A DNA stretch of 64,000 nucleotides. Origin: Bacilli bacterium (GTDB lineage: Bacteria; Bacillota_I; Bacilli_A; RF39; UBA660). Shown piece by piece: positions 4,741 to 60,086 of this stretch. Position 1 is the stretch's first letter. Every line of letters begins with the position of its first letter. Below the pieces are notes generated by a model, which searched no databases, had not been told where the DNA came from, and saw only the letters and a program-made list of their open reading frames with translations. The DNA is taken from positions 16,334 to 80,333 of the forward strand of contig JAFUTO010000002.1 of NCBI GenBank assembly GCA_017484205.1. Reading direction: 5' to 3'. The position numbers were made by a program, and so were the translations under genes.

Positions 4741-4753
4741 AAAAGGTGAAAAT

Positions 4754-6160: not shown

Positions 6161-6174
6161 TTCTTCTTTTTTGT
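6148..6174 (+). terminator. Rho-independent terminator
   Basis: agaagaag-taa-ttcttctt hairpin overlapping the stop codon, followed by tttttt. Confidence 0.65.
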
Positions 6175-6202
6175 ATACTATATGTCTACTTTACATTTAT
6201 TT

Positions 6203-6244
6203 TTGACAAAAGCATTTACATAATTATTGCTGCTTTGGTATAAT
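6203..6244 (+). promoter_or_regulatory. Promoter region: perfect TTGACA (6203-6208) and extended -10 TGgTATAAT (6236-6244)
   Basis: Both hexamers are visible, but their spacing is non-canonical (27 nt), so there may be two overlapping promoters; RBS aggagg precedes the ATG at 6268. Confidence 0.4.
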
Positions 6245-6267
6245 TAAGAAAATAGGAGGTATGTATT

Positions 6268-8157
6268 ATGAGGAAGTTTTTATTTTTAATACTTACATTA
6301 TTATTTATTCCTTTGTGCGCGAGTGCTGCAGAATATGATATATACGAAGATACTATAAGATACTATGGTACTATTAATTATAGCTTTGTATATTCAGAAG
6401 CTAATACTAAGTCTGTACTTGCATCCAAAGGAAATATATATGAAAGGGTAGCTATATTAGGTAATGCAACAAATGCTGATGATTTAAATGATGACTGCAT
6501 TAATATGTATAGCATTATATATCAAGAAAAAGTAGCTTATGTTTGTGCTAATAATGTTATTAATATTGTTTCTGCTGAAATATTAGAAACAAGTAATATA
6601 ACTTATAATTATGATAGGGAATTATCTAAATTTCCAGAAAGTTATAGGAGTTATATTGATACGCTACATCAACAACATCCTAATTGGAGATTTTATGCTA
6701 TAAATACTTATTTGGAATATTCAGATGTAGTAAATTATGAAAAAAATGCTAACTATATAGATAGTACAACTAATAATGTGTCATATTTTGATACATTAGA
6801 AGCTATAAATTATAACTATCAAAATGAAACTTATGTGTACCACAAAGATGGTAAATGGGTTACACCAAGTACAGAAGCAACGGCATATTTTATAGATCCA
6901 AGAAACTATTTAACTGAGGAAAAAGTGTTTGTATTTGAAGATTCAAGAACATATTCATATCAAACTCCGGAACCAGTAAAACAAATATTAAAATATGTTG
7001 ATAATAATGAAATTGATTATGCTGATGTATATAAACATGCCTCAAACTTTTCGAAACTTAGTCCATTAACTTTAATTGCAAGAGCTAGATTGGAAAATAC
7101 AACATATACAGGAAATGTAAATGAACAAATAGTAGAAAAAGCTACATATTTAGCAACTAAATATACTTATAATGGACAAGAAACACAATACTTCCAAAAA
7201 TTCAACGTAAATCCAAATACGTTAAGTAATACATATGCTCATCAATATGAAACAAATATTGAAAATCCAATTGTTGAAGCTTCCTATATATATGAAGCAT
7301 ATAAAGAAGCAGATGCGTTAGAAAATTCAATAGTTTTCCATATACCTGTATATAATAATATGCCAGGTGAAAGTTCTATAAAACCTCTTGATGGAAATCC
7401 AAATAACTGGTTATCAACTATAACTATTAATGATGAGCCAATAGATAATTTTGATGGAGATAATTATTATAGTTATGATAATAACTGGGATGGCGAGGAA
7501 GACGCAGTTTATCCTGACCATGTTATTACATATAATGCAGAATGGGATGCTGAAAGTATTACTATAGATGCGTCTGCAATATCAGAAGAAGCTGGTATAT
7601 TAGGAACTGGTGAAATATCACTTCCTGATAAAGAAACAATCGTTGATTTAGTTGTTATGGCAGAAAATAATACAACTAAAACATATCGTGTAGTTATTGT
7701 AAAAAATGATCCTCCATATCCAGATATTGATTGGGTATTGAGTCAAATTGCTATTAAATACGATGACAAATATTTAAGTGGGTTATCAATTGGTAGTGAT
7801 TATAATGTACTAAAAGATGCTATTACAAATATAAGCGACTTAGTTACAACTGAAATAACTCCAAGAGAAGGTAATACAACAGGAACTTTTGCTACAGGGG
7901 ATATGATAACAGTAACTAGTGGTCCACAAGTTCGTAATTTTACATATGTATTATATGGTGACTTGAATGGTTCTGCAACAATTAGTATAATAGACTTAGT
8001 AGCAATTAGAAACATAATATTAGATGAATCTAATTTAGAGGGAGCATATAGAGAAGCAGGGGATGTAAATCGTGACGGAAAAGTTAGTATACTTGATCTA
8101 GTAGCTGTTAGGAACGATTTATTAGGTACTCATATTGTTCAATTGCCACAAGAATAG
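6268..8157 (+). CDS. Secreted dockerin-containing paralog of 2374..4740 (SH3b-like + truncated GH73-like region + cadherin-like + dockerin); possibly catalytically inactive
   Basis: 629 aa; signal peptide; shares the KFPESYRSY..LH..HPNWRFYAI and YxGQETQYFQKFNVNP blocks with 2374..4740 but lacks ~45 aa including the YNYYNIGAW block; C-terminal dockerin whose first repeat is degenerate (GDLNGSATISIIDL). Confidence 0.6.
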   Translation: MRKFLFLILTLLFIPLCASAAEYDIYEDTIRYYGTINYSFVYSEANTKSVLASKGNIYERVAILGNATNADDLNDDCINMYSIIYQEKVAYVCANNVINIVSAEILETSNITYNYDRELSKFPESYRSYIDTLHQQHPNWRFYAINTYLEYSDVVNYEKNANYIDSTTNNVSYFDTLEAINYNYQNETYVYHKDGKWVTPSTEATAYFIDPRNYLTEEKVFVFEDSRTYSYQTPEPVKQILKYVDNNEIDYADVYKHASNFSKLSPLTLIARARLENTTYTGNVNEQIVEKATYLATKYTYNGQETQYFQKFNVNPNTLSNTYAHQYETNIENPIVEASYIYEAYKEADALENSIVFHIPVYNNMPGESSIKPLDGNPNNWLSTITINDEPIDNFDGDNYYSYDNNWDGEEDAVYPDHVITYNAEWDAESITIDASAISEEAGILGTGEISLPDKETIVDLVVMAENNTTKTYRVVIVKNDPPYPDIDWVLSQIAIKYDDKYLSGLSIGSDYNVLKDAITNISDLVTTEITPREGNTTGTFATGDMITVTSGPQVRNFTYVLYGDLNGSATISIIDLVAIRNIILDESNLEGAYREAGDVNRDGKVSILDLVAVRNDLLGTHIVQLPQE

Positions 8158-8166
8158 GGTGATTAT

Positions 8167-9543
8167 ATGAAAAAAATATATACAATTATTACAATTGTTA
8201 TATCGTTATTATTTATAACTAATGTAAAAGCTGATGGTACAAGTGCTACACTAACACCATCGCCTTTATCTTGTTATGAAGGGGAAACATGTAGTATAAC
8301 TTTGAATCTTAATTCAAATATTGAAATAGGTGGTGTTAGTTATAAACTTTCATATGATACTTCAATGTTAGAATTTGTAGATGGTAAGAAGAATAAGATA
8401 GCGGATGGTATTATACAGGTTATTGATGAACCTCGTGCTACATCTGCTTCTTATACTTATAAATTTAAATCATTGAAAACAGGTGAAAGCACAGTTAAGA
8501 TAGTGAGTATGGAAGTTTCTGATGCAAATGAAGAAATGCCAAATGATATTACCCCAAGCACATTGCCTAGTGCCTCAGTATCGATGACAACTAGACCTGT
8601 AACAGCTCCTACGACACCAACTACAACAACTAAAAAAAGTAACAATGCTAATTTATCAAATTTGTCAATTGATGGTGTATCATTGACTCCTGCTTTTAAT
8701 TCCAGTACTACTACATATACAGCAAGTTTAAACCCTGATGCAACTAGTATAAATATAAGTGCATCAACTGAAAATAGTGGTGCTAAGGTATCAGGTGCAG
8801 GAACAATACCTGTATCAAAAGGTAATAATAATATAGAAATAAAAGTTACAGCAGAAGATGGCACAACTAAAACGTATACTATTACAGCAAATGTCCCTGA
8901 TTCAACAGTAGGAACTATAAATGATAAAAATATTGTTACAAAAAGTGATGATAATCCAATCAGTGATTCGTTTTCAGAAACAACTATTAATATTGATGGA
9001 CAAGATGTGCCTGCTTATTATAATGATGCTACAGGTACTACAATAGTAGCTGTTGATAATGGTAATGGTGAAGTAGAATATTATACTGTTGACGAAGATG
9101 GGAATTTAGGAAAATATGATGAAGTTGATTCAGATAAAATAGATTTAATGTCATTAGCAGTAGCTTTAGGTGATGTTCCTGAAGGATATGTTGAAACTAC
9201 AATTATTATTGATGGTAAAGAATATAAGGCATATAAAAAAGCTGATGACTCAAGATTCGTATTATTATATGGTACAAACTTAGCGACAGGTGATACAGGA
9301 TTCTTTGTTTATGATACAGTAGATAGAACAATTCAAAAATATGATGTTGATAGTTTTAATGATTTGTTAGAAAAAAATGCTAAATTATGGATACTATTAT
9401 GGATTTTAATATTTACATGTATAGGGTTATTAATTCTATTAATAATCGCGTTAATATTATTGAGTAAAAGAGATAAAGTTATAAAAAAATATAAAAATTA
9501 TATACAAGGTAAAAAAGAGGAGATAAATGAAGAAAGAAGTTAG
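8167..9543 (+). CDS. Membrane-anchored cohesin-domain protein, paralog of 4754..6160
   Basis: 458 aa; signal peptide; cohesin-like N-terminal domain (..SYKLSYDTSMLEF...ASYTYKFKSLKTGESTVKIV); T/P-rich linker; cadherin-like domain (NANLSNLSIDGVSLTPAFNSSTTTYTASL); juxtamembrane domain conserved with 4754..6160 (DVPAYYN...GEVEY...DLM...GKEYKAYK..DSRF.LLYGTNL..TG.FVYD); TM helix plus basic tail. Confidence 0.6.
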   Translation: MKKIYTIITIVISLLFITNVKADGTSATLTPSPLSCYEGETCSITLNLNSNIEIGGVSYKLSYDTSMLEFVDGKKNKIADGIIQVIDEPRATSASYTYKFKSLKTGESTVKIVSMEVSDANEEMPNDITPSTLPSASVSMTTRPVTAPTTPTTTTKKSNNANLSNLSIDGVSLTPAFNSSTTTYTASLNPDATSINISASTENSGAKVSGAGTIPVSKGNNNIEIKVTAEDGTTKTYTITANVPDSTVGTINDKNIVTKSDDNPISDSFSETTINIDGQDVPAYYNDATGTTIVAVDNGNGEVEYYTVDEDGNLGKYDEVDSDKIDLMSLAVALGDVPEGYVETTIIIDGKEYKAYKKADDSRFVLLYGTNLATGDTGFFVYDTVDRTIQKYDVDSFNDLLEKNAKLWILLWILIFTCIGLLILLIIALILLSKRDKVIKKYKNYIQGKKEEINEERS

Positions 9544-9561
9544 TTCTTTCTTCATTTATTA
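9529..9561 (+). terminator. Rho-independent terminator overlapping the 3' end of 8167..9543
   Basis: gaagaaagaa-gttag-ttctttcttc hairpin followed by atttatt. Confidence 0.55.
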
Positions 9562-9570
9562 TGGTATAAT
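9540..9570 (+). promoter_or_regulatory. Extended -10 promoter (TGgTATAAT at 9562-9570) for the glycosyltransferase gene
   Basis: tggtataat motif 17 nt upstream of RBS aggtgg and the ATG at 9587. Confidence 0.4.
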
Positions 9571-9586
9571 AAATATAGGTGGTAGT

Positions 9587-10666
9587 ATGAAAAAAATATT
9601 AATAACTTGTTTGGATTTACATTACAATAAAATTAATAATGCAATGTTAGAATTTATTAACTGTATCGATTTAACTAAAAATGAAGTCGATTTAATAGCT
9701 ATGGAAACAGGAGAACTGCTATTACAATTAGATAAGCGAATTAATGTTACGTACTATAGAGATTATATGTTAATGCCAAGTAAGTTTTTATATAATTTAA
9801 AAAAGAAATATATAGTTGATGATTTATATAATCAACAAAGATTTGCGTTTAAAAAAGAGTACGATATTGCTATCTCATACTATGGTCATAATAACTATGT
9901 TGATATGATATCTGCGTCAGTTAAAGCTAAGAAGAAAATAATATGGGTACATAATACTATAGGCGAGGTATCAAATTATTATAGAAAGAAACTAATTAAA
10001 AAATATAAATATTTTGATAATATAGTTTTTACTACTAAGAATAACATGAATATATTCAACAACGCATTACCTTGCTATAAAGACAAGACTATATGTATCA
10101 ATAATGTTATAGATGGTAATAAAGTAATTAATTCTTCTAAAGAGAATACTACAATTAAATTAAGTCAAGATTACAATATTATAAATATATCTAATTTGAA
10201 CAAAGAAAATAATATTGATAAATTAATAGATATTCAAAAATATTTATTTTCTAAAGGAAAGAATGTAAAAATATATGTAATTGGTGATGGAAGTTTATCA
10301 TATGAAATAGCTGAAAAAATGAGAAAAAATAATTTAACTGATTCATTTATAATGTTGGGAATGCAAAAAAATCCATATAATATATTAAAACAAGCTAATT
10401 TATATATAGATGTATCATCTTCTGATAAATTCAATATAACTTTATTAGAATCAGTCGTATTAGATGTTCCATTTATTGCTAATGAAACTGTTGTTAATAA
10501 AGAAATATTATCTATAATACCTAAGAATGGTGGTAAGGTATGCAATATAGAAAATATGGGGAATGAAATTATAAAGCAAATGAAAACATATCAAGATCAT
10601 ATCCCATTTGATTATAAAAAATATGAAGATGATATTATAGAAAAAATAAATAAATTATTAAAATAA
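9587..10666 (+). CDS. Glycosyltransferase, GT4/GT1-like
   Basis: C-terminal half matches the GT1/GT4 pattern (IYVIGDGSL...EIAEKMRK..L.D.FIMLGMQKNPYNILKQANLYIDVSSSDKFNITLLESVVLDVPFIANE); start chosen at MKKILIT (RBS aggtgg) rather than the ORF-track ATG at 9527, which overlaps the upstream gene. Confidence 0.55.
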   Translation: MKKILITCLDLHYNKINNAMLEFINCIDLTKNEVDLIAMETGELLLQLDKRINVTYYRDYMLMPSKFLYNLKKKYIVDDLYNQQRFAFKKEYDIAISYYGHNNYVDMISASVKAKKKIIWVHNTIGEVSNYYRKKLIKKYKYFDNIVFTTKNNMNIFNNALPCYKDKTICINNVIDGNKVINSSKENTTIKLSQDYNIINISNLNKENNIDKLIDIQKYLFSKGKNVKIYVIGDGSLSYEIAEKMRKNNLTDSFIMLGMQKNPYNILKQANLYIDVSSSDKFNITLLESVVLDVPFIANETVVNKEILSIIPKNGGKVCNIENMGNEIIKQMKTYQDHIPFDYKKYEDDIIEKINKLLK

Positions 10667-47073: not shown

Positions 47074-50000
47074 ATGAAGATGCAAAGTAGTAAGTTTAAA
47101 GGAATTTTGTTATTTTTAGTAAGTTTTATGGTATTTACAATTGTACCAACGGTTGCTAAAGCTGCAACATACAATTTTAGTTTTAGCGCATACAATTGTG
47201 GTAATAGTACATATACAGAGGATGATATAATTGATAATTGTATTCTAGAATATTATGATGGCAATTTAGCAAAGCTAAATGATGGAGTCGTTGTAGATAC
47301 AGATAAATACATCATGCTAGTTTTGGAATACGAGTATACTAGCGGTACGGGTGCAGCAGTTTTATCAGTTGATACTTCATATGATAATACTTTTGTTGAA
47401 AATTTATCATTCACTCAAACAGCTATTGATGCGGATAACCCAATTTTTACAAGATCAATTGCTAGAAAATGGAATTCTTCAACAAGTGATACTGGTAGTT
47501 TAGTTGTATTAGCTTATGATTCAGACGATGAAACTTTGACTTATGATCCAGGTGCGATTGGATTTATGTTCTTCAAAGTAAAGGACACCGCACCAGCTGG
47601 TCAAACTTTTACGTTTGCTATATCTGATGATCCTGATGATACTCGTGTCAGTGATTCCACAGGTAATATACATATCGATTGGGCAGCTTCTCCAATATCT
47701 TTCAAGGTTGCTGGATCTGCAACTTCGACTGATACTTCTTTAAAAACTTTAAATGCTAAAGGAAGTAATGCAACTGATTATTCAATTTATATGGATAATG
47801 GTTATACAACTGAATTTAGTGCAGGAACATCAAATAGAACGTTCTATGCAGTAGTTCCATATGATGTTACTTCAATTACTTTAAATGGTGAAGTAACAGA
47901 TTCTGCTGCTCAATTTATTCCAGGAAATGGTACTACTTATAGTAGAAATCATAATTTAGATGTAGGAAATAATGAAATAACATTTAGAGTTACCGCACAA
48001 AGTGGTACTACTGAGGATTATTATATTAATGTCTATAGATTAAGTAATGATGCATCATTACAGACATTAACTACTTCAGGTAATGTTACATTGAATGGTT
48101 TTGCTTCAAATGTATATAGTTATGATATTTCAACTACTTATGCAACTGTTACAACAAATGTAACATCAAAACCTACTCATGAAAATGCTTTTGTTACAAA
48201 TAGTGAAGATGTATTATGGGATAAAAATACAAGTTCAGGTAGTTATACTCAAACTTTTGCTTTACCAGGTTTTGGTACTGATGTTAATACCAAAGTTGTC
48301 AAGGTACAAGCAGAAGATTGTTTAAGTGAATATGCAAGTGTTCCAGGTAATACTTGTCATACACAAGATTATACAATTAATGTTAGTAGATTAAATCCAT
48401 CTACAGATGCAACTTTAAAAGCATTAGCTGTTGATGGAACTTCAATATTTGTAGAAGGTACTACAGATTATGATCAAGGTTCACAACCATATTCTAAATC
48501 ATCAGCTGATATAACTGCTACAGCTAACGATTCAAAAGCTACAGTAGTTGCTTCAACTGTTGGAAATAAAACATTAAATGTTGGCGATAATACTATTACA
48601 GTTACGGTAGAAGCAGAGGATTGTAAGGTAATTACTGGTTCTAATCCAAGTGGTAGTTGTCATACACAAGATTATACAATTAAATTCTATAGAAGAAGTA
48701 ACAATGCTAATTTAAATACATTAGTTGTTACTGGAACAGGTGTATCTATGAATCCTGCATTTACGGATCATAGTTATGTTGGACCATATACTGTAAGTTA
48801 TCCATCAGGAGCAACATCTGTTAATGTCAAAGCAAGTGTTGAAGAAGAACATGCCACAATTAATATTACAGGTATCGAAGATGGTATTGACTATTCCAAT
48901 TTAAGTAATCAATTAAGCATAATTGTTACTGCAGAAGATGGTAATACTAAAACTTATGTATTAAGATTTAGTAAAGTATTATCTAGAGAGTCTAGACTTG
49001 ATAGTTTAACTGTTAGCGGTGTATCATTATCTCCATCACCATTTGATCCAGATACATATACATATTCTGGTAGTGTAGATGGTAATGTTGAAAAAGTAAC
49101 TATTGGTGCAACATTAAAAGATGCTGATAAATCAACATTTATGGAAGGCTATGGACCTAGAGAAGTTGAATTAAATTATGGTGATAATACATTCTATGTT
49201 AGAGTACAAGGTGAAGCAGATGATGCCACTAGTTCATATAATGTCACAATAACAAGAAATGAAAAAACAATTAAAACATTAAAAGAAATTTCAATTGATA
49301 GTGTACCTATTGATCCATTTGATCCAGACACAATTACTTATACTGTAGATCCAGTCGATTATTCAACAACTTCAGTTACAGTTAAAGCAGTTGTTACAGA
49401 AGGCAGTGATGCTACATATACAGTATTAAATCAATCAGGTGGTGTAGCCGTAGGTGGTGTTATTAACTTAAATACAGGTGATAATACTGTTACAATAAGA
49501 GTTAGAGCTCAAGATGGTTCTACTGGTGATTATACAGTAACTATACCAAGAGAAAAGAATAATGTTGCTACTGTAGATAGTGTAACCGTATTTGGTAATG
49601 CTGCTACATGTGATAACGATACAAGAAAATGTACTATTACAGTAACAAATGATCATTCATCAATCGCACCTACAGATGTGGTTGTAATTCCAACTGATTC
49701 TAGTGCTACAGTAACTAAACCTACAGATACAAGAAATTTAGTAGTATCTACTCCAAGTAATCCAAGAACTAATACTTATATCTTCAGTGTTAAAGCAGAA
49801 GATGGTGTTACTACAAAGGAATATGAATTAATTATTACAAGAGAAGCATCAGATGATGTATCTTTGAAAGAAGTATCAGTATTTACAAATGAAGGTCAAA
49901 CTTATAGATGTACAACATTTACTGGATTTGCATGTACAATTTCAGTACCAAGTACAACTACAGGTTATACACTTTCAGCTACACCTAATTCAGGCGCAGC

Positions 50001-53000
50001 AACTGTAGATGGTACAGGTTCATTTACTATGGATGGTGCATCTGATAGTAGTCAAATTAAGGTATTAACAGTAACAGCAGAAGATGAACATAGTCAAGTA
50101 TATCAAATTAAAATTGAAAGAAGTAAATCTACCAACGCTAATTTAAAGACTATTACTATTGATGGTGTAGAAATAGATGGCTTTGATGGAGTTAATAAAC
50201 AAAATTATACTGTTACTGTTCCTGGTACTACTGAAGCAATTACATTAGGCGCTGAAGTAGATGATACAGGAAAAGCAACTATCGAAAATAGTGATACTAT
50301 TTTAGGTAGAAAAGATCTTGTTTATGGATCAGAAGGAAATGTTTATACATTAAAAGTTATTGCTGAAGCTGGCGAAGGTTCTGTTAAAACATATACAGTT
50401 ACAGTAATAAGAAGTAATAATATAGATTCTACATTATCTATGATTCAAATAGGTGGTAGTAATTTAAATGGTTTTGCATCTAACACATATGCATATAACT
50501 ATAATGATACATATTATCAAGATTTAGGTAACGAAAACCAATTAGTAGTACCTTATAATAAAACTAGCATTACTTTGTTAGGTGTTCCTACAGATACCAC
50601 TTATGGAACAGTTAAATATAATGGTACTGCATCAACTGAAGCAACAACTATAAACTTAACAACAGGTGTTAATACTATTACTGTAACGGGTGTTGCGCAT
50701 GATACAAGTAAAACAACAGATTATGTATTAAAAGTATTTAGAACATTGAATTCAAATAATTCAATTACTAAATTAGAGGTTGCTGGTGTAGAAGCTACAT
50801 GGGATGATGAAAACAACAAATATACAGTTACTGTTCCAAATAGTGTTGATAGTGTTGGAACATTAAATGTTAATGTCACATTACCTGCAAAACAAGTAGC
50901 TACAGACCCTGATGCAACTGTAACGATACCAACTATGTCATTAACAACAGATAACGTTAATAATTATCAAATTATTGTTACATCAGAAGCTGGTGAAGCA
51001 AAAACATATCCAGTTGAAATAACAAGAGCAAAATCAACTGTAAAAACATTAACTGCATTAGCTGTAACAAATGGTGCGTTCAGTCCGTCATTTACTCCAA
51101 ACACTAATGAATATACAGTTATTGTACCTGCTTCAACTACTGAATTTACAGTAAGTTATACTAAAGCAGATCCTAAAGAAACTGTAACTGGTGCTAGAAG
51201 ATATGACATGACTTCAAGCAATATGGATGTTATAGTTGAAGTTCAAGCTGAAGATCCAGAAGAACCAGTTAATAGATATACATTACATATTGAAAGAACT
51301 GAGTCAGCAGTTAATACTTTAAGTAGTATTGTTGTTAATTCAGGAGAGACTATTTATGCTTTAAATCCATTATTTAGTCCAGATAAAACTTCATATGTAG
51401 TAGAAGTACCTGGTACTGTATCACAAGTTAATATTACAGCTACACCTACAGACAGTAGATCTACTGTAACAGGTGATGGTGTTAAAACAGTAAGTAGGGG
51501 TGATAATACATTTACTATTACATCTACTTCTGAAACAAATACATTTATTAATTATACTGTTAATGTTAAAGTATTAGATAAAACAATAAATACATTAAAT
51601 AATATAACAGTAACTTTGGATGATGGAACAGTTTTACCATTAAGTCCTAATTTTGCATCTGATATTCAAAATTATACAATTGCTGATCAACCATATAGTG
51701 TTACTACAGTAAATATCGGTGTAGAAAGAACTGATAGTGATTCAACAGTTAAAATTGGTAATGTTGATTATACAATGACTGATGAAACTAATGGTATTAC
51801 AGTACCACAAAGTCTAAACGCTGGTGCGAACACAATAAAAGTTGTTGTTACAGCACAGGATGGAACTTCTAGTACATATAATATCCGTATTAGAAGAGAA
51901 GAAAACGATGATGCTACTTTAAGGACATTAAATGTTTCAGGTGGATCTTTATCACCTACATTTGCTCCTGAAATTACATCATATTCAGTAGAATTAGATA
52001 GTGATGTAACTACATTATCTCCATCAGAAGTAACTGCAATAGCTACTGATTCAAATGCAACAGTAACAAAAGATCCAACAGTTACAATAAGTGATGATGG
52101 AACTACTATATATGATATCTTAGTAACAGCTCAAAATGGTACAACAAAAACATATTCAATAACTGTATCTAGAAAGAAAAGTGCTGATGCTAAGTTGAAG
52201 AGAGTAGATTTGACTGGCGCTTCTATTAGTCCATCATTTACTCCAAACAATGATCAATATACATTAAATATTTCTTCAACATCAACAGAGTTTACAATTC
52301 AAGGTATTCCTAATCATGATAATGCTACTGTGTCATATAATGGTGTAGGATCAACAGAAGGTATTACATATCCTGCTTCAACTGATACTGTTTCTATTAC
52401 AGTAACAGCAGAAGATGGAAGTACAACAAAGACGTATACATTTAATGTTGTAACTGCTACTGCAAGAGACGCTACATTAGCTGACTTGGAAGTATTAGGA
52501 TATACTTTAGATCCTGAATTTGATACAACTACTGTTGTATATGATATTGGTGAAGTTGAGTTTGGAACAGATAGTTTAACTATTATTGCGACTCCTACAA
52601 ATACTAATGCTACAGTTAATTATTATGTAGATGGTGTTAAGCAAGATGATAATGTCGTTGATTTACCACAAGCATTAGGTAGTAAGAGTATTACAATTGA
52701 AGTTGTACCTGCTACAGGTTCAAAAGCGCAAGCTAAGTATTATTCTGTTAATTATGACATGGTTACATCTAGAAATAATTATTTAGCTACATTAATACCA
52801 AGTAGTGGTACATTAAGCCCATCATTCTCAAAAGGTAGAACTGCTTATTCAATGACAGTACCTTATGATACTGAAAGCATATCATTCCAAGTAACTACTG
52901 ATAATAACCAATCATCAGTAAGTAATGATGGTACAACATTTATGTTTACAGATGCTGAACCAGCTACTTATGTATATAATGATTTGCGTGTAGGCACAAA

Positions 53001-54150
53001 TACAATGACATTTACGGTAAGAGCTGCTAATGGTGCATTAAGAGATTATGTTGTAACTGTTACAAAGACAGGTAGAACACCATCTTCAGATGTTTATTTA
53101 TCTAGTTTAAAAGTAGATAATTATGAGTTGACACCTAGTTTTGATAAAACCGAAGAGGTTTATTCAATAGGAAGTATCCCTTATAGTTTACAAACATTAA
53201 CAGTAAGGGCTACAGGTAATTATGCAGGTCAAACAATTACGTATAGTTTAAATGGAACTGATGTTACAGCAAATGATGATGGAAGTGCAACAATTAATGT
53301 TGCTGGAACTACAGGATCTAATTTGATAAATGTTCATGTTGTAGCTGAAAACGGAACATCTACAAAAAATTATCAAATATCTTATACTAAGACGCCATCA
53401 TCTAATGCTTACTTAGCTAGTATGATAGATGGATTACATAAGATTACAAATTTCAATAAAGAAACAAAAGATTATGAAATTAGTGTTGATAGTACAGTTG
53501 GTACATTAACATTAACATTAACTACTGAAGAAGAACATGCTACTATGACTATTAATGGTACTAAACGTACTCATCAATGGGCATATGAAGCTACGAACCT
53601 AAAAGGTGGAACTAATGTTGTTGTAATATTAGTAACAGCAGAAAATGGTGATACAGCAACTTATAAATTGACTATCAATAAAGAAGGTTCAAGTGAACTT
53701 ATAACTTCTGAAGAATTTGGACATATAATAGAAGATGGTTTCATAAAAACAGCAATATTAAATGAAACTATTGGTGATTTAATGTCTAATGAATTGGATA
53801 ATGATGTTGACATGTTACAAGTTTGGGATGCAGAAGAAACTGCTGAAATAAATGATACATCTACTAAAGTTGCTACTGGTCAAATAGTTAGACTAGTTGA
53901 TAGAACAACAGGTGCAGAATTGGATAGAAAAGTAGTAGTTGTTAGGGGAGATACTGATGGCAATGGTTCAATCAATGTATTAGACTCAATTCCAATTGTT
54001 AACCAATCATTAAGAAGATTAACATTAGTTGGTGCCTATGCTCAAGCAGCAGATGTTGATAAGAATGGTTCAATCAATGTATTAGACTCAATTCCAATTG
54101 TTAATCATTCATTAAGAAGAACATTTATAGATTATACTATAGGAAGTTAA
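47074..54150 (+). CDS. Putative adaptor scaffoldin (2358 aa): N-terminal cohesin-like module + ~24 cadherin-like beta-sandwich domains + C-terminal dockerin
   Basis: Signal peptide; N-terminal ~180 aa ending ...DPGAIGFMFFKVKDTAPAGQTFTFAIS, which resembles the cohesin C-terminal strands; repeated cadherin-like units; C-terminus GDTDGNGSINVLDSIPIVNQSLRR...ADVDKNGSINVLDSIPIVNHSLRR (dockerin duplicated segments). Confidence 0.7.
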   Translation: MKMQSSKFKGILLFLVSFMVFTIVPTVAKAATYNFSFSAYNCGNSTYTEDDIIDNCILEYYDGNLAKLNDGVVVDTDKYIMLVLEYEYTSGTGAAVLSVDTSYDNTFVENLSFTQTAIDADNPIFTRSIARKWNSSTSDTGSLVVLAYDSDDETLTYDPGAIGFMFFKVKDTAPAGQTFTFAISDDPDDTRVSDSTGNIHIDWAASPISFKVAGSATSTDTSLKTLNAKGSNATDYSIYMDNGYTTEFSAGTSNRTFYAVVPYDVTSITLNGEVTDSAAQFIPGNGTTYSRNHNLDVGNNEITFRVTAQSGTTEDYYINVYRLSNDASLQTLTTSGNVTLNGFASNVYSYDISTTYATVTTNVTSKPTHENAFVTNSEDVLWDKNTSSGSYTQTFALPGFGTDVNTKVVKVQAEDCLSEYASVPGNTCHTQDYTINVSRLNPSTDATLKALAVDGTSIFVEGTTDYDQGSQPYSKSSADITATANDSKATVVASTVGNKTLNVGDNTITVTVEAEDCKVITGSNPSGSCHTQDYTIKFYRRSNNANLNTLVVTGTGVSMNPAFTDHSYVGPYTVSYPSGATSVNVKASVEEEHATINITGIEDGIDYSNLSNQLSIIVTAEDGNTKTYVLRFSKVLSRESRLDSLTVSGVSLSPSPFDPDTYTYSGSVDGNVEKVTIGATLKDADKSTFMEGYGPREVELNYGDNTFYVRVQGEADDATSSYNVTITRNEKTIKTLKEISIDSVPIDPFDPDTITYTVDPVDYSTTSVTVKAVVTEGSDATYTVLNQSGGVAVGGVINLNTGDNTVTIRVRAQDGSTGDYTVTIPREKNNVATVDSVTVFGNAATCDNDTRKCTITVTNDHSSIAPTDVVVIPTDSSATVTKPTDTRNLVVSTPSNPRTNTYIFSVKAEDGVTTKEYELIITREASDDVSLKEVSVFTNEGQTYRCTTFTGFACTISVPSTTTGYTLSATPNSGAATVDGTGSFTMDGASDSSQIKVLTVTAEDEHSQVYQIKIERSKSTNANLKTITIDGVEIDGFDGVNKQNYTVTVPGTTEAITLGAEVDDTGKATIENSDTILGRKDLVYGSEGNVYTLKVIAEAGEGSVKTYTVTVIRSNNIDSTLSMIQIGGSNLNGFASNTYAYNYNDTYYQDLGNENQLVVPYNKTSITLLGVPTDTTYGTVKYNGTASTEATTINLTTGVNTITVTGVAHDTSKTTDYVLKVFRTLNSNNSITKLEVAGVEATWDDENNKYTVTVPNSVDSVGTLNVNVTLPAKQVATDPDATVTIPTMSLTTDNVNNYQIIVTSEAGEAKTYPVEITRAKSTVKTLTALAVTNGAFSPSFTPNTNEYTVIVPASTTEFTVSYTKADPKETVTGARRYDMTSSNMDVIVEVQAEDPEEPVNRYTLHIERTESAVNTLSSIVVNSGETIYALNPLFSPDKTSYVVEVPGTVSQVNITATPTDSRSTVTGDGVKTVSRGDNTFTITSTSETNTFINYTVNVKVLDKTINTLNNITVTLDDGTVLPLSPNFASDIQNYTIADQPYSVTTVNIGVERTDSDSTVKIGNVDYTMTDETNGITVPQSLNAGANTIKVVVTAQDGTSSTYNIRIRREENDDATLRTLNVSGGSLSPTFAPEITSYSVELDSDVTTLSPSEVTAIATDSNATVTKDPTVTISDDGTTIYDILVTAQNGTTKTYSITVSRKKSADAKLKRVDLTGASISPSFTPNNDQYTLNISSTSTEFTIQGIPNHDNATVSYNGVGSTEGITYPASTDTVSITVTAEDGSTTKTYTFNVVTATARDATLADLEVLGYTLDPEFDTTTVVYDIGEVEFGTDSLTIIATPTNTNATVNYYVDGVKQDDNVVDLPQALGSKSITIEVVPATGSKAQAKYYSVNYDMVTSRNNYLATLIPSSGTLSPSFSKGRTAYSMTVPYDTESISFQVTTDNNQSSVSNDGTTFMFTDAEPATYVYNDLRVGTNTMTFTVRAANGALRDYVVTVTKTGRTPSSDVYLSSLKVDNYELTPSFDKTEEVYSIGSIPYSLQTLTVRATGNYAGQTITYSLNGTDVTANDDGSATINVAGTTGSNLINVHVVAENGTSTKNYQISYTKTPSSNAYLASMIDGLHKITNFNKETKDYEISVDSTVGTLTLTLTTEEEHATMTINGTKRTHQWAYEATNLKGGTNVVVILVTAENGDTATYKLTINKEGSSELITSEEFGHIIEDGFIKTAILNETIGDLMSNELDNDVDMLQVWDAEETAEINDTSTKVATGQIVRLVDRTTGAELDRKVVVVRGDTDGNGSINVLDSIPIVNQSLRRLTLVGAYAQAADVDKNGSINVLDSIPIVNHSLRRTFIDYTIGS

Positions 54151-54166: not shown

Positions 54167-56359
54167 ATGAAAAATATGAAAAAATTAAAATCATTGGTTG
54201 CCATAGTACTAGGATTTTTCCTAGTCTATGCAACTACTGTATTTGCAGCAGGATCTGTAACTGTAGGAATGGGTGGCAATTCATCAGTTGCTGTTGGTTC
54301 TACTATTGATGTTACAATTTACCTTGATAACGTTAATGCAAGTACAGAAGGTATAATTGCTTTTCAAGGTGATATTCATTTTGATACAAATTATTTAGAA
54401 TTAGTAACAGTAACTCCTGCAAGTAGTCCTTATTCATTTGATTATGAAGTAGGTGGAACTGATGTTGTATATTTAACTGGACTTGATACTTCATTTAGAA
54501 AAGGTATCAAATCCAATACAACAATTTATACTTTCACATTTAAAGCATTAAAAAATGGTACTACAACTGTAACATTAGAAAATGTTATAGCAGGTGATCC
54601 TAGTGGTGACGTAAGTGCAAATAACTCAAGTAAAGTAATTAATATTGGTGGTAGTTCAAGTACACCAACAGTTAAAAGTAGCGATGCTGATTTAAAATCA
54701 TTAAGTGTTTCTGGTTATAATATTAGTCCTGCTTTTGATGCAGCAACAACTACTTATACACTTACTGTACCAAGTGATGCAAGCAATGTTACTATTGCAG
54801 CATTACCTTCAAGTGGTAAAGCTTCTGTTAGTGGTGTAGGTTCTAAAACTTTATCAGATGGATTAAATTCAGTAGAAATTACAGTAACAGCAGAAGATGG
54901 TACTAAAAAGACATATACAGTTAATATTACAAAAGAAGCAAGTACAGTTCCAACAACTAAGAGTAGTGATGCTACACTAAAATCATTGGAATTGGCTGGT
55001 GGATATACTGTATCACCAACATTTACTTCTGATAAAACTACATATTCATTAACTGTTCCAAATAATGTTACTTCATTAGATGTTACAGCAATTGCAAATG
55101 ATGCAAATGCTAAAGTAGAAGTAACTGGTAATACAAACTGGAAAACAGGAGTTAACCCTGTTAAAGTTACAGTAACAGCAGAAGATGGTACAACTAAAGT
55201 ATATACAGTTAACGTAACAAGAAAAGATAATACTTCAGCTGTAAGTGGAGGTACTACTCCTACTAAGAGTTCTAATAATTATTTAAAAGAATTATCTACT
55301 AAAAATGGTGATATAAGTCCAGTATTTAGTAAAACAACAAGTAATTATAGTGTTACTGTTCCATATAATGTTTCTAGATTAGACTTAAATTATTTAGTGG
55401 AAGATGAAAAATCTTCAGTTAAAATCAATGGTAATAGTGATTTTAAAGTAGAATCAGTTAACACTGTTGAAGTTGTTGTAACAGCAGAAGATGGAAGTCA
55501 AAGAACTTATACAATTAATGTTACAAGATCTTCAAAAACAGGTGAAAACTTATTAGATGATATTATTATTGGTGGTGGAAGTACAAGTTTAAATCCAAAA
55601 TTTAAACCAACAACTTATGATTATGGTATTGAATTAGATCGTAATACAACTAGTATTGATATTACACCTATAACAAGTAATCCAAATGCTAAAGTGGAAG
55701 TAACAGGTAATGAAAATTTACAAGAAGGAAATAATACTATTTTGATTAAAGTTACTGATCAAGAAGGCTTTGTTCAATATTATAAAATTAACGCTTATAA
55801 GAAAGCTACAAATGGAATTGTTCTATTTGGTATAGATTTTCCCAGGTGGATGGTTTATACGGCTATTGCGTTGGTTCCTGCCTTATTAATCCTATTAGTA
55901 CTTGCTAAAAAGAAACAAGAAAATAAGGAATTAGCACCAGCAGCTTCAACAATTGAATTCAAGCCAGAATTTAATTTCTCATCTAAAAATGGTACGGATG
56001 ATGATTATGTTGAATCAGGTGGCGTATTAAACCAAGTAGTTAAAGAAAAAGAGGAATCTCTTGAAAAAACAGCTGTTGATATTAGAGATATTCCAACTAG
56101 TGCAGTTGGTATTACTGAAGGAATATCTACTGGATTAAATAAGAGTATGATGGAAGAATATCCAAGAAAGGTTATAGAAGAAGAGCCTGAGCAAATACCT
56201 TATGATCCATATGATGATAAAGTTACAAAAGAAGAACTTATCGATGCGATTAATGAAAAAAATCCAGAAAAGTTAAAAATACTATATCAACAAGAAATGT
56301 TAAATAGAGAAAAAGAAAGAGTAAAAGAAGCTGAATATCATGAAAGACATAGAAGATAA
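54167..56359 (+). CDS. Membrane-anchored cohesin-domain protein (cohesin + five cadherin-like domains + TM helix + ~170-aa acidic cytoplasmic tail)
   Basis: 730 aa; signal peptide; cohesin-like domain (GSVTVGMGGNSSVAVGSTIDVTIYLDNV...IHFDTNYLELVTV...TIYTFTFKALKNGTTTVTLENV); TM segment WMVYTAIALVPALLILLVLA followed by KKKQENKE...; lies 16 nt downstream of the adaptor gene. Confidence 0.7.
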   Translation: MKNMKKLKSLVAIVLGFFLVYATTVFAAGSVTVGMGGNSSVAVGSTIDVTIYLDNVNASTEGIIAFQGDIHFDTNYLELVTVTPASSPYSFDYEVGGTDVVYLTGLDTSFRKGIKSNTTIYTFTFKALKNGTTTVTLENVIAGDPSGDVSANNSSKVINIGGSSSTPTVKSSDADLKSLSVSGYNISPAFDAATTTYTLTVPSDASNVTIAALPSSGKASVSGVGSKTLSDGLNSVEITVTAEDGTKKTYTVNITKEASTVPTTKSSDATLKSLELAGGYTVSPTFTSDKTTYSLTVPNNVTSLDVTAIANDANAKVEVTGNTNWKTGVNPVKVTVTAEDGTTKVYTVNVTRKDNTSAVSGGTTPTKSSNNYLKELSTKNGDISPVFSKTTSNYSVTVPYNVSRLDLNYLVEDEKSSVKINGNSDFKVESVNTVEVVVTAEDGSQRTYTINVTRSSKTGENLLDDIIIGGGSTSLNPKFKPTTYDYGIELDRNTTSIDITPITSNPNAKVEVTGNENLQEGNNTILIKVTDQEGFVQYYKINAYKKATNGIVLFGIDFPRWMVYTAIALVPALLILLVLAKKKQENKELAPAASTIEFKPEFNFSSKNGTDDDYVESGGVLNQVVKEKEESLEKTAVDIRDIPTSAVGITEGISTGLNKSMMEEYPRKVIEEEPEQIPYDPYDDKVTKEELIDAINEKNPEKLKILYQQEMLNREKERVKEAEYHERHRR

Positions 56360-56412
56360 TCATCTTCTTTTTTCTTATTAAAATAAAATAGATGATTAAA
56401 TCATCTATTTTT
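56348..56412. terminator. Two back-to-back terminators for convergent genes (agaagat-aatc-atcttct + T-run; aatagatgatt-aaa-tcatctatt)
   Basis: Hairpins with flanking T/A runs located between the convergent 54167..56359 (+) and rarA (-) genes. Confidence 0.6.
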
Positions 56413-57625
56413 CATTGAACCATCTTTTTAATTCTTCGTATCTTTCTTTAAATTTCTTTTCTTGCAATGAACTTCCATTTAATTCTAAATATTCTTTGTT
56501 TCTAATTTTATCTGGCATATATTGTTGTTTTACAAAATTGTTTGGATAGTCATGTGGGTATAGATATGTAGTAGTATTAATCCTAATATTTTCAGGTATA
56601 TTACCAGAATTACCTTTTCTTATATCTTCTAGTGCTCTATCTAAAGCGACATGTGCTGAATTAGATTTAGGGGATAAAGCCATTTCAGTAACAATTAGTG
56701 ATAGTGGTATTCTTCCTTCCGGTAAACCAACTCTTTCACATGCGTTAATAGCAGCATCTATTTTAACTCCAATAGATGGATTAGCAAGACCTATATCTTC
56801 ATAACCTATGACAGTCATTCTTCTATATATAGAATCTAGATCACCTTCTTCAATTAATCTAGCTAAATAGTGTAGGGAGGCATTAACATCACTACCTCTA
56901 ATAGATTTTTGAAACGCTGATAATAAATCATAATGCCCATCTTCATTCGCATCACTAAACAAAGCGGGTTTATTATTAATTGTTTTTAACACATCTATTG
57001 TAACTTTAAAATCAGTAGTAGAGTAGTAAGCTATTTCAAGTAGGTTATAGGCAAATCTTAAATCTCCATTTGAAAGCCTTGTTATATATTTAATTGCTTT
57101 TTCATCTATTTTAATTTTAGGAAGTAATTTCTTTTTTATAACATCATGAATAGCTTTAGATACATCTTCATCATCCAAAGGTTTTAATTCAAATATTTGA
57201 CATCTAGATCTAATAGCTGGATTAATTGAATGATATGGATTAGAAGTAGTCATACCAATTAAAGTAACTAATCCGTTCTCCAAATATGGTAGTAATAAAT
57301 CTTGTTTATCCTTATTCATACGATGTATTTCGTCCATCACAATAACAATACCTTCATACATTTTTGCTTCTTCAATAACTACATCAAAATCTTGTTTATT
57401 ATTAATAACGGCATTTAGCATTCTATATCTTAGTCCAAGCTCATTTACAATAGCTAAAGCCAAAGTGGTTTTACCAATACCTGGTTTACCATATAAAATC
57501 ATAGAAAATATTTTTTTATTTTTGGTTATATTTCTTAATACTTTATTTTCTCCAATTAAATGTTTTTGACCATATACTTCATCAATAGTGTTAGGTCTAG
57601 CAGTAAAAGCTAATGGTTCTGCCAT
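56405..57625 (-). CDS. rarA: Replication-associated recombination protein A (AAA+ ATPase RarA/MgsA)
   Basis: Walker A GKPGIGKTTLA, Walker B VIVMDEIHR, sensor motifs; N-terminus LAFTARP.TIDEVYGQKHL; start chosen at MAEPLAF (RBS aggtga). Confidence 0.85.
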   Translation of the reverse strand: MAEPLAFTARPNTIDEVYGQKHLIGENKVLRNITKNKKIFSMILYGKPGIGKTTLALAIVNELGLRYRMLNAVINNKQDFDVVIEEAKMYEGIVIVMDEIHRMNKDKQDLLLPYLENGLVTLIGMTTSNPYHSINPAIRSRCQIFELKPLDDEDVSKAIHDVIKKKLLPKIKIDEKAIKYITRLSNGDLRFAYNLLEIAYYSTTDFKVTIDVLKTINNKPALFSDANEDGHYDLLSAFQKSIRGSDVNASLHYLARLIEEGDLDSIYRRMTVIGYEDIGLANPSIGVKIDAAINACERVGLPEGRIPLSLIVTEMALSPKSNSAHVALDRALEDIRKGNSGNIPENIRINTTTYLYPHDYPNNFVKQQYMPDKIRNKEYLELNGSSLQEKKFKERYEELKRWFNEK

Positions 57626-57698
57626 AATTATCACCTATATATATTTTACCATAAATATAGAGATATTATTTTAATATTTAATAAATAAATTATTTAAT

Positions 57699-58500
57699 AA
57701 CGATACAATAAGAACTATATGGGGTAAGGAAGAAGAAAAATACTTTATAAGTGTTGTTGACTTAGTTGGTGTTGTTTCAGAAAGTAAAGCTAAACAAGCA
57801 TATTGGAGAAAATTGAAACAACGTTTAAAAGAAGAAGGAAATGAAACCGTGACAAATTGTCACGCTTTGAAACTTAAAGCACAAGATGGTAAGTATCGTA
57901 TGACTGATGTTGTTGATATTGAAGGAATGTTTAGAATTATTGAATCAATTCCTAGTAAAAATGCAGATCCAATTAAACAATGGTTAGCAAAATTAGGAAG
58001 TGAGAGAATAGATGAAACATTTGATCCTTCATTAGCGGCACAAAGAGCGATAGACTTATATAGATCCAAAGGTTATGATGAAGAATGGATTAGTAAAAGA
58101 GTTAAGTCTTTACAAGAGAGAAAAGGGTTAACTGATTTGTGGAAAGATGCGGGCATTAATGATATTGAATATGCAATTCTAACAAATGAAATTTACAAAG
58201 AATGGTCTGGCATGACTGCAAAACAATATAAATCATTTAAAGGACTTAGGAAAGAATCATTAAGAGATAATTATGTCTGATGTTGAAGTCGCTTTAACTG
58301 AACTATCAGAAATAGCAACTAAAGAACTTGTAAAAACTCAGAAGCCAGTTGGGTTAAAAGAAAATGTTAGGGTGGCAAAAGTTGGTGGTCATACTGCGAA
58401 AGTAGCTCGTGACTATTTAGAAGAAAATATAGGCTCATCAGTCGTCACAAAAGATAATAAATTAAATTATAGATACAATGATACAAAAGAGTTAGAATAA
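57699..58500 (+). pseudogene. Degraded paralog of the dinD-like gene 22939..23778 (N-terminally truncated, +1 frameshift near 58271)
   Basis: In-frame homology begins without a start codon (NDTIRTIWGKEEEKYFISVVDLVGV versus the intact copy's SEIRSVWDSDKEDYYFSVVDVIGV); frame breaks at agagataaTtatgtctga versus the intact copy's agagataatatgtctga; the C-terminal 75-aa remainder is in the +1 frame. Confidence 0.65.
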
Positions 58501-58548
58501 ACTCTTTTTACTTGTATCAAAAAATGATATAATTAATATGGTGAGAAT

Positions 58549-59427
58549 ATGAATCCGATAGAAGAATTTAAAAAATACTTACTTATTGATCGACATTATA
58601 GTGATAATACTATATCTAGTTATATGAATGATTTAGATATATATTTTGAGTATCTAAGCAAAAAGAAATTAGATTATAAAAATATCAATACTAACGATAT
58701 AAGAGAGTATTTAAAATATATAAATAACAAAGACGAAAGAACAGTAGCTCACCAAATTTCTGTTTTAAGAGGATTTTATAAATACTTAATAATGGAAAAT
58801 ACTATAAAAATAAGCCCTATGGAAAATATTGATTTACCTAAATTATCAAAGAAATTACCCAATGTACTTAGTGTAGAAGAAGTAGATAAATTATTAGATA
58901 TTAATCTTAATACAATGTATGATTATAGAAATAAAGCGATGTTAGAATTAATGTATGCTACTGGTCTACGTGTATCAGAGTTAGTTAATTTAAAATTAGA
59001 AGATGTTGATTTAAATAACGCGATTGTAAGGACAATGGGCAAAGGATCTAAGGAACGTATTGTTCCATTTGGTGATTATGCTTTAAAGGCATTATATGTA
59101 TATATTAATGAATATAGAGGATTATTTTTTAAGAAAGAAGTATCTGAATATTTATTTTTAAATAATCATGGTAAACAAATGACTAGACAAGGTTTCTTTA
59201 AAATGCTTAAAGGTATTGCATTGGAAAAAGGAATAGATGTGGAATTATCACCACATACTTTAAGACATTCATTTGCAACTCATTTGCTTAATGGTGGAGC
59301 TGATTTAAGAAGTATACAAGAGATGTTAGGACATTCTAATCTATCAACTACTGAAATATATACTAATATAAGTAGAGAAGAAATTAAGAAAAAATATCAT
59401 GAAACACATCCACATGGAGGTAAATAA
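58549..59427 (+). CDS. Tyrosine recombinase XerC/XerD family
   Basis: Conserved R..HxxR..Y catalytic region (HTLRHSFATHLLNGGADLRSIQEMLGHSNLSTTEIYT); N-terminal SAM-like domain; XerD versus XerC not resolved. Confidence 0.8.
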   Translation: MNPIEEFKKYLLIDRHYSDNTISSYMNDLDIYFEYLSKKKLDYKNINTNDIREYLKYINNKDERTVAHQISVLRGFYKYLIMENTIKISPMENIDLPKLSKKLPNVLSVEEVDKLLDINLNTMYDYRNKAMLELMYATGLRVSELVNLKLEDVDLNNAIVRTMGKGSKERIVPFGDYALKALYVYINEYRGLFFKKEVSEYLFLNNHGKQMTRQGFFKMLKGIALEKGIDVELSPHTLRHSFATHLLNGGADLRSIQEMLGHSNLSTTEIYTNISREEIKKKYHETHPHGGK

Positions 59428-60086
59428 TGGACTTATTTCAATATCAAGATTTAAAATATAAAGAATTTAATGATAAAATCCAAAATCAGAGCGTTTATCC
59501 TACTATTGGTATAAGAATACCTATTTTGAGAAAAATAGCCAGGGAGGTATCTAAAAACGATTATTTGGACTATATTAATAATAGACATACATATTGGGAA
59601 GAATATTTAATACATGGACTTATTATTGGATATATTAAGATACCTTTTAAAGATAAATTAATCCTATTAGATAATTTTATACCATATATATATGATTGGG
59701 CATTAGTTGATACTACAGTATCTAATTTAAAAGACTTTAAAAATAATCAAAGTGATGGATATAAATATATATTAAAACTTATTAATGGCAATACCTTTAG
59801 TATTAGATTTGGTTTAGTTTTGTTATTAGACTATTATATTAATGATGAATATATAGATAAAATATTTGATATAGTTTTAAATATAAAAAATGATGATTAT
59901 TATGTTATGATGGCCAAGGCATGGTTGTTATCATATACATATATGAAATATAAAGAAAAGACTATTGTCATTTTAAAAGATAAAAGATTATCTAGAAATA
60001 CAGTAAATAAAACAATATCAAAAGTATGTGATTCATATAGAGTTAGTACTATAGATAAAGAAGAAATTAAAAGATTAAGAAGATAG
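59427..60086 (+). CDS. DNA alkylation repair protein (AlkD/AlkC-like HEAT-repeat family)
   Basis: 219 aa; helical-repeat pattern typical of DNA_alkylation (PF08713)-type proteins; call by resemblance only. Confidence 0.45.
   Translation: MDLFQYQDLKYKEFNDKIQNQSVYPTIGIRIPILRKIAREVSKNDYLDYINNRHTYWEEYLIHGLIIGYIKIPFKDKLILLDNFIPYIYDWALVDTTVSNLKDFKNNQSDGYKYILKLINGNTFSIRFGLVLLLDYYINDEYIDKIFDIVLNIKNDDYYVMMAKAWLLSYTYMKYKEKTIVILKDKRLSRNTVNKTISKVCDSYRVSTIDKEEIKRLRR

Follow-up and report, generated by a model that had tools for sequence, protein, structure and literature searches.

Why should the two calcium-binding segments of a single dockerin match each other not only residue by residue but almost codon by codon? 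The question is raised by the 3′ end of gene H in a 64,000-nucleotide (nt) stretch of contig JAFUTO010000002.1 from a Bacilli bacterium (assembly GCA_017484205.1); "the window" denotes this whole stretch. The DNA identity between the H segments goes beyond what protein conservation and codon bias account for, and the evidence points to two layers of symmetry: one at the protein level that is an old norm of the family, and one at the DNA level that is likely recent and particular to H. The parts of gene H are as follows.

47074–54150, + strand: gene H, a 7077-nt open reading frame (ORF) for a 2358-residue secreted adaptor, with an exact match in public data (MBR1376282.1, "MAG: Bacilli bacterium", MAG being metagenome-assembled genome)
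47161–47745, + strand: cohesin-fold domain of H, residues 30–224 (AlphaFold model)
53698–53940, + strand: pre-dockerin beta/alpha domain, residues 2209–2289, kept across the family alignment and in an X-module-like position
53947–54123, + strand: dockerin of H, two loop-plus-helix segments (Pfam PF00404 at residues 2292–2338)
53950–54018, + strand: dockerin segment 1, DTDGNGSINVLDSIPIVNQSLRR, with calcium ligands D1, D3, N5, N9 and D12
53962–54002, + strand: first copy of a 41-nt repeat, the probable acceptor of a conversion tract
54019–54051, + strand: 11-residue linker LTLVGAYAQAA, with a short helix, joining the two segments
54052–54120, + strand: dockerin segment 2, DVDKNGSINVLDSIPIVNHSLRR, with calcium ligands D1, D3, N5, N9 and D12
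54064–54104, + strand: second copy of the 41-nt repeat, the probable donor

The C-terminal module of H is a dockerin by signature, calcium ligands and fold, as the first-pass annotation of this DNA had proposed. It scored 25.7 bits against Pfam PF00404 (cutoff 22.9), and its last 150 residues were modelled with AlphaFold on a 20-sequence family alignment; the model reached a predicted local distance difference test (pLDDT) score of 87.7 and placed three helices in the dockerin part, at residues 94–104, 112–118 and 128–138 of the modelled region. Searched with Foldseek, the model retrieved dockerins from solved cohesin–dockerin complexes as all of its top 21 PDB matches, with root-mean-square deviations (rmsd) of mostly 1.2–2.6 Å over the ~51–67-column matches to single dockerin modules. 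The two H segments are identical at positions 5–18 and 20–23, the lone helix difference being Q/H at position 19. Both carry a proline at helix position 15 (SIPIVN; 53992–53994 and 54094–54096), which is common only to H and the clade of two relatives, loci L008 and L022; other relatives have lysine or other residues there.

In the DNA, an exact 41-nt core, AATGGTTCAATCAATGTATTAGACTCAATTCCAATTGTTAA, is present twice, and none of the window shuffles contained two copies of it. In a repeat search, the match between the copies grew to 70 nt (90% identity), and their distance was 102 nt, or 34 codons. Both copies are in frame in the ORF and encode NGSINVLDSIPIVN(Q/H)SLRR; the opposite strand at the 3′ end of H holds no ORF of at least 80 residues. 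The duplicated core reported in the first-pass annotation was thus confirmed, at slightly different coordinates. Of the positions quoted with it, the end of the second copy (54120) was correct, and the first range was about five bases off: the 54-nt degenerate string (ggttc...aagaaga, with Y/W variable sites) lies at 53965–54018, not 53960–54012, and at 54067–54120. Counted from the G/A residue preceding the first Asp of the calcium loop, the H segments agree at 61/69 nt and 19/23 residues, with the same codon at 18 of the 19 identical residues. As had also been noted, the other three dockerins of the window (genes 2374–4740, 6268–8157 and 25481–46930) are clearly diverged: their segments agree at 43/69, 46/69 and 45/69 nt, with identical codons at 7/15, 6/12 and 7/15 residues, about half. 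The symmetry of the H dockerin is hence far above that of the others in the window and reaches the DNA level. Its 41-nt run is bounded by diverged loop codons (GGC vs. AAG) and by a diverged linker and tail.

Because codon bias in a genome of ~30% GC would by itself give ~60% of identical residues a common codon, chance had to be judged against a codon-conditioned null, i.e. one conditional on both protein segments and on the codon usage of gene H itself. Under this null, 19/20 identical codons were observed where 12.0 were expected (P = 2e-4), and the run of 13 identical codons had a P of 1.8e-4. Over 20000 simulations, both the 62/69 nt identity and the 41-nt exact run were reached at P = 0.0002. 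Both copies use two of the rarer codons, ATC for Ile and GAC for Asp. The proportion of synonymous differences (pS) between the H segments was 0.09 over positions 8–23, compared to ~0.51, a saturated value, for whole-gene comparisons between orthologues.

How such identity arose can be read from the relatives of H. These were retrieved with the full-length protein as query, yielding orthologues of 52–59% identity plus more distant sequences; orthologue DNA was fetched for eleven loci, and 20 relatives, 20–69% identical over the C-terminal 150 residues, were aligned. A profile search of 1.84 billion representatives returned 145 family members (E ≤ 1e-30). Two segments are present in each of the 20 aligned relatives, spaced by 34 residues in nearly all and with insertions in a few; among the fetched orthologues, the spacing is 34 residues in 10/11 and 41 in the remaining one. 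Loop positions 1–7 are segment-specific across species (GDTDGNG-like vs. ADVDKN-like): their identity is 3.86/7 between first segments of different proteins, 3.15/7 within a protein, and 2.05/7 between segment 1 and the segment 2 of another protein. This layout of two segments is old, which excludes a recent duplication and leaves a local transfer between pre-existing segments. Of the "recent duplication or conversion" initially put forward, we therefore rejected the first half, on the layout of the orthologues and the segment-specific loop positions, and retained the second, in keeping with the 19/20 identical codons. A recent homogenising transfer of at least 41 nt is likely the best reading of the DNA identity in H.

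The direction of the putative transfer may be legible as well. Compared with the L008/L022 clade, the H tract shows 7 differences to segment 2 and 11–13 to segment 1 (a manual count with the codon table), and both H copies encode Ile at position 8, as does segment 2 of this nearest clade. Together with this shared Ile, the smaller number of differences to segment 2 suggests segment 2 as donor and segment 1 as acceptor.

At the protein level, by contrast, near-identity is no recent event: the symmetry is the family norm, old and, to judge from sequence comparison, held by selection. The first-pass proposal that symmetry marks a recent event, against which an ancient, conserved identity in orthologues was to count, is accordingly contradicted in part, at the level of the protein, and would hold for the DNA of H. 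Over positions 8–23, 12.2/16 residues are identical within a protein, against 6.0–6.2/16 between proteins, and at the nucleotide level the p-distance rises from 0.15 within a gene to 0.42–0.44 between genes. What is repeated differs from lineage to lineage—INVLDSIPIVN in H, ITLFDSVKIVNHYLDK in L009, DLFDAVKILNHYLEK in L011 and KVNVTDKTKLTNFIIK in L017—so that the segments co-evolve rather than being statically conserved. In line with this, seven orthologue pairs showed 25 residue differences concerted in both segments and 9 non-concerted ones (our own sum). An identity of at least 13/16 in the best internal window was found in 64/150 proteins taken from the full-length and profile searches, mostly 50%-cluster representatives; with 15/16, H is typical of its family. 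The dockerin of gene G, the 5′ neighbour of H, shows the same within-protein tendency more weakly. In many members the symmetry is broken only at helix positions 15–16, where segments 1 and 2 repeatedly differ by V/I (or K/M), a hint of a small, conserved asymmetry that frequent conversion would erase; H has Ile in both segments.

Two cases illustrate how selection can maintain this likeness. L008 and L022 are 80% identical overall, and 22/23 residues are identical between their segments, yet they have segment-specific synonymous markers in common (ACA GTx AAC ... ATA CCx ATC in segment 1; ACT ATT AAT ... ATT CCA ATT in segment 2). As these markers persist at 22/23 identical residues, the symmetry of this clade points to purifying selection without conversion. 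In L010 (10117–10288), both segments have Ser at loop position 9, a calcium ligand, encoded by TCA in one and AGT in the other; neither codon can be derived from the other by conversion or a single synonymous step, which argues for selection. Its sister L009 has Thr (ACG/ACA) at this position in both segments, making the Ser of L010 an apparent parallel substitution.

Transfers of DNA may nonetheless recur in the family. Exact runs of 30, 33, 24 and 21 nt were detected in L009, L010, L014 and L016, each at P = 0.015–0.023, so that 4/11 orthologues had a run at P < 0.025 where ~0.3 were expected. L009 and L010 moreover differ by four synonymous changes, each of which is present in both segments of a genome. 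This suggests, from sequence comparison, that conversion-type events recur, with H the strongest and most recent case among the loci compared. Strong conversion in all orthologues was considered and rejected: runs of 17–36 nt and 14–16 identical codons are mostly expected from codon bias under the codon-usage null.

What H might bind is suggested by the two genes that flank it.

25481–46930, + strand: gene G, 7149 residues, with glycine-rich ALK_LTK_GRD domains and cadherin-like repeats and a C-terminal dockerin
54167–56359, + strand: gene I, a 730-residue membrane-anchored protein with signal peptide, cohesin, 4 cadherin-like repeats and a transmembrane (TM) helix

In gene I, the cohesin spans nt 54263–54643 and the TM helix nt 55847–55906, followed by a charged cytoplasmic tail of ~150 residues. 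The cohesin matched Pfam PF00963 at 41.6 bits (cutoff 24.1; E 1.8e-10; residues 33–159) in a scan confined to the N-terminal 198 residues, and was not listed in the full-length scan; against PDB chain sequences it gave one match, a weak one (4dh2_A, E 0.11). An orthologue of I directly follows that of H in nine fetched loci (L008–L015 and L022), one of which, in L014, has a precomputed Cohesin match; the contig of L016 stops before the position of I. The order G-H-I is kept in the loci with both flanks recovered. On this adjacency, I is predicted to be the likeliest partner for the dockerin of H.

Gene H itself encodes a signal peptide, the cohesin-fold domain, 17 cadherin-like repeats (matched by the Pfam Cadherin-like profile in as many stretches, E 4e-129), the pre-dockerin domain and the dockerin. 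Bearing a cohesin-fold domain N-terminally and a dockerin C-terminally, it has the layout of an adaptor. Residues 30–224 had no match in the Pfam scan; their AlphaFold model (pLDDT 79.8, predicted TM-score 0.79) retrieved only cohesins among its top 50 PDB matches with Foldseek (best 6kgf_C, E 3.5e-8), with target TM-scores up to ~0.75 among the best of them. Two cysteines of this domain are conserved, C13 being invariant and C27 nearly so, and residues 92–103 of the model form an insertion of low confidence. The pre-dockerin domain was modelled as E10-12, E15-17, H25-32, E40-43, E63-67 and E74-81 (E, strand; H, helix) at a pLDDT of 77–96. Gene G comprises about nine repeats of 1.4–1.5 kb with ALK_LTK_GRD-type domains, then cadherin-like repeats; its dockerin differs in sequence from that of H, and its dockerin segments begin at 46736 and 46838 and, unlike those of H, are diverged from each other. 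Judging by gene position, the H cohesin-fold domain may be where the G dockerin docks. A general homogenisation of repeats in G, H and I was considered as well and rejected, the cadherin-like and glycine-rich repeats being only 60–82% identical in DNA.

Taken together, we consider it probable that H is an adaptor in a non-enzymatic surface assembly, with a dockerin kept symmetric by selection and segments that were recently converted. The H dockerin would attach to the cohesin of I at the membrane, and the H cohesin-fold domain would take up G. As the segments are alike from loop position 5 to the helix end, the module should present two equivalent faces to a cohesin, interchangeable by a rotation of 180 degrees, and a dual-binding mode is plausible. 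The symmetry would have two layers. Selection would maintain the one at the protein level; the one in the DNA of H would stem from intragenic gene conversion or template switching, by which one segment recently passed at least 41 nt to the other, 102 nt away, without receiving sequence in return. Most likely, this transfer ran from segment 2 to segment 1 and removed synonymous differences; more generally, a change in one binding face could be carried over to the other in a single step. On the sequence patterns described, episodic conversion might even let cohesin–dockerin specificity drift between species while the faces stay matched, with H caught soon after an event, an idea that we put forward only tentatively. 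As direct repeats at a distance of 102 nt, the two 41-nt copies could also serve as a putative substrate for an in-frame deletion of 34 codons.

Dual binding is the accepted reading of internal symmetry in dockerins: such modules bind their cohesin in two orientations 180 degrees apart, while those without internal symmetry bind in one (PMC5429695, PMC5141474). Closest to the H dockerin in this respect are the enzyme-borne type I dockerins of Clostridium thermocellum Xyn10B (1OHZ/2CCL) and Clostridium cellulolyticum (2VN6), which are dual-mode, two-fold symmetric and use ligands 1, 3, 5, 9 and 12; the H model aligned to 2ccl_B with a target TM-score of 0.90, an rmsd of 1.2 Å and 40% identity over 62 columns. 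The C. thermocellum dockerin reportedly makes contact through a Ser-Thr pair, whereas H has V10 L11 / V17 N18 / R22 at the contact positions as well as the proline at helix position 15. The H dockerin further differs from the enzyme dockerins in belonging to a 2358-residue, non-enzymatic, cadherin-like protein of an uncultured member of the Bacilli rather than to a glycoside hydrolase.

The top structural match was the Acetivibrio cellulolyticus ScaB dockerin in complex with the ScaC cohesin (4UYP/4UYQ; E 1.4e-3, target TM-score 0.78, rmsd 1.5 Å), for which a dual mode has been reported. Both ScaB and H dockerins are of the scaffoldin or adaptor type; that of ScaB links a large complex to a surface anchor, and that of H would do the same. 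Cellulosomal anchors typically use S-layer-homology or sortase anchoring; the anchor of the H locus is instead a TM helix with a cytoplasmic tail, and no enzymes or carbohydrate-binding modules were seen in the locus. In A. cellulolyticus, attachment to the surface is by dual-mode dockerins (PMC5429695). The single-mode dockerins of Ruminococcus flavefaciens groups 1, 3 and 6 share the fold (8ajy_B and 5lxv_B are among the matches) and probably, to judge from sample names, a similar habitat, but lack internal symmetry (PMC5429695), so that H stands at the opposite extreme. As for non-cellulosomal modules, the cohesin-like module of Clostridium perfringens (2JH2) is among the matches of the H N-terminal domain; the set of three genes for an anchor, an adaptor and a giant protein, with cadherin-like repeats, sets the H locus apart from it.

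The alternative that survives best, which we nevertheless regard as unlikely, is that the symmetry serves another use than dual binding: either both helices contact one cohesin in a single mode, with the preceding domain X-module-like, or two cohesins are bound at once. In the latter case, the dockerin could hold, e.g., the cohesin of I and, at the same time, the N-terminal one of a second H molecule, so that molecules are bridged or polymerise head to tail; H has the means for this in possessing both a cohesin-fold domain and a dockerin. Single-mode binding gains credit from the conserved domain directly 5′ of the dockerin, which might be an analogue of an X-module, and from the existence of single-mode dockerins as such. 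The published single-mode examples, however, lack internal symmetry (PMC5429695), and matched faces throughout a family are what a dual mode predicts. Moreover, the pre-dockerin domain gave only partial, weak matches to X-module–dockerin (X-Doc) structures (4wkz and 4iu2).

That selection alone keeps the interface symmetric, with the DNA identity of H a product of codon bias in an AT-rich genome and no conversion involved, we consider distinctly improbable. Much of the family does look this way: codon bias by itself would make about 60% of codons identical, 7/11 simulated orthologues showed no long exact run and no excess identity, the L008/L022 symmetry persists without conversion, and the 3′ part of the tract, AATCATTCATTAAGAAGA, consists of common codons and is the same in H segment 2 and both L008 segments. 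It is in H that the explanation falls short, where identity and run length both depart from the null and the less common ATC and GAC appear in both copies, and it leaves the excess of long runs in four of the eleven orthologues unaccounted for.

Several points nonetheless weigh against our preferred account, in which conversion was laid over a selected symmetry and the dockerin binds the cohesin of I in two orientations. Identical codons were not above expectation in most orthologues (P = 0.1–0.67 or higher), and ten orthologues pooled gave 120 against ~115 expected (our own sum); conversion would thus be no more than episodic, and the pattern seen in the proteins could be due to selection alone. 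Two contig collections, of genomes and metagenomes, yielded only matches of 27–43% identity to the C-terminal region of H, the H protein (P0001) is a singleton in its 90% cluster with its allele in one genome only, and no pre-conversion allele was seen among these sequences. With the closest matches this distant and the cluster a singleton, the event is not datable by strain variants. The donor direction is based on a handful of sites in saturated sequence, and the cognate cohesin of the H dockerin was assigned by gene adjacency alone. In type II/III X-Doc modules, both helices may touch one cohesin in a single mode, and a domain precedes the H dockerin as well.

An assembly artefact, whereby a metagenome assembler wrote one segment over the other, is very improbable. 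The source is indeed a MAG, and three contigs with the identical protein may stem from the same data. Yet the repeat is short, in frame and set in distinct flanks, two internal mismatches are retained, and comparable tracts of 21–33 nt occur in independent assemblies of other species. Barely credible, finally, is a recent de novo duplication that created the second segment: near-identical, in-frame direct repeats 102 nt apart would fit it, but the two-segment layout extends to relatives of 20% identity, the linker and loop positions 1–7 are orthologous by position, and the identity ends at the loop start and helix end, the flanks and linker being free of repeat.

Cohesin–dockerin pairs are not confined to G, H and I in this window, whose total comes to four dockerins and as many cohesin or cohesin-like modules. 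Two further pairs lie upstream.

2374–4740, + strand: gene B, a dockerin protein, pairs with C
4754–6160, + strand: gene C, a cohesin-like protein with a TM helix, pairs with B
6268–8157, + strand: gene D, a dockerin protein, pairs with E
8167–9543, + strand: gene E, a cohesin-like protein with a TM helix, pairs with D

B-C and D-E (2374–9543) form tandem paralogous pairs, each of a secreted dockerin protein followed by a cadherin-like, TM-anchored cohesin-like protein. The dockerins of B and D scored 40.1 and 41.3 bits against Pfam Dockerin_1, and BLASTP related the N-terminus of C to the I cohesin (E 8e-8) and E to C (E 2e-9), the N-termini of both anchors being homologous to the I cohesin. 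Just 3′ of these pairs is a glycosyltransferase gene (9527–10666). On the 3′ side of the H locus (56405–60086) are an MgsA-type AAA+ ATPase gene on the minus strand, a short ORF with a weak Bro-N match (57813–58280) and a gene for a XerC/D-like tyrosine recombinase (58549–59427). The surrounding genes are housekeeping ones (PNPase-like, SHMT, FolD, ABC transporter, cardiolipin synthase-like, QueH and MgsA). Weak relatives (35–38%) of the combined pre-dockerin and dockerin region were found at two loci, L002 and L007, in MAGs labelled Burkholderiales and Bacteroidaceae. All other contigs in which the module was seen are of Bacillota type, so these labels come as a surprise; a transfer or contamination during binning could be behind them.

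The module itself is a typical dockerin of a known family, symmetric dockerins are well known, and the working model of how dockerins act is left unchanged by our findings. Less familiar are the evidence for conversion at the DNA level, the family-wide co-evolution of the two segments and a non-enzymatic assembly of several tiers; in the open-access literature, we found no relevant paper on gene conversion or concerted evolution in a dockerin, and none describing a multi-tier cadherin-like cohesin–dockerin assembly. Few studies ask how the two faces of a dockerin keep matching as its specificity changes from species to species, and the H locus, if our reading is right, would be a clean case of DNA homogenisation laid over family-wide selection for symmetry. 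It would also widen the non-cellulosomal range of cohesin–dockerin modules to giant cadherin-like proteins held on membrane-anchored cohesins in a gut bacterium.

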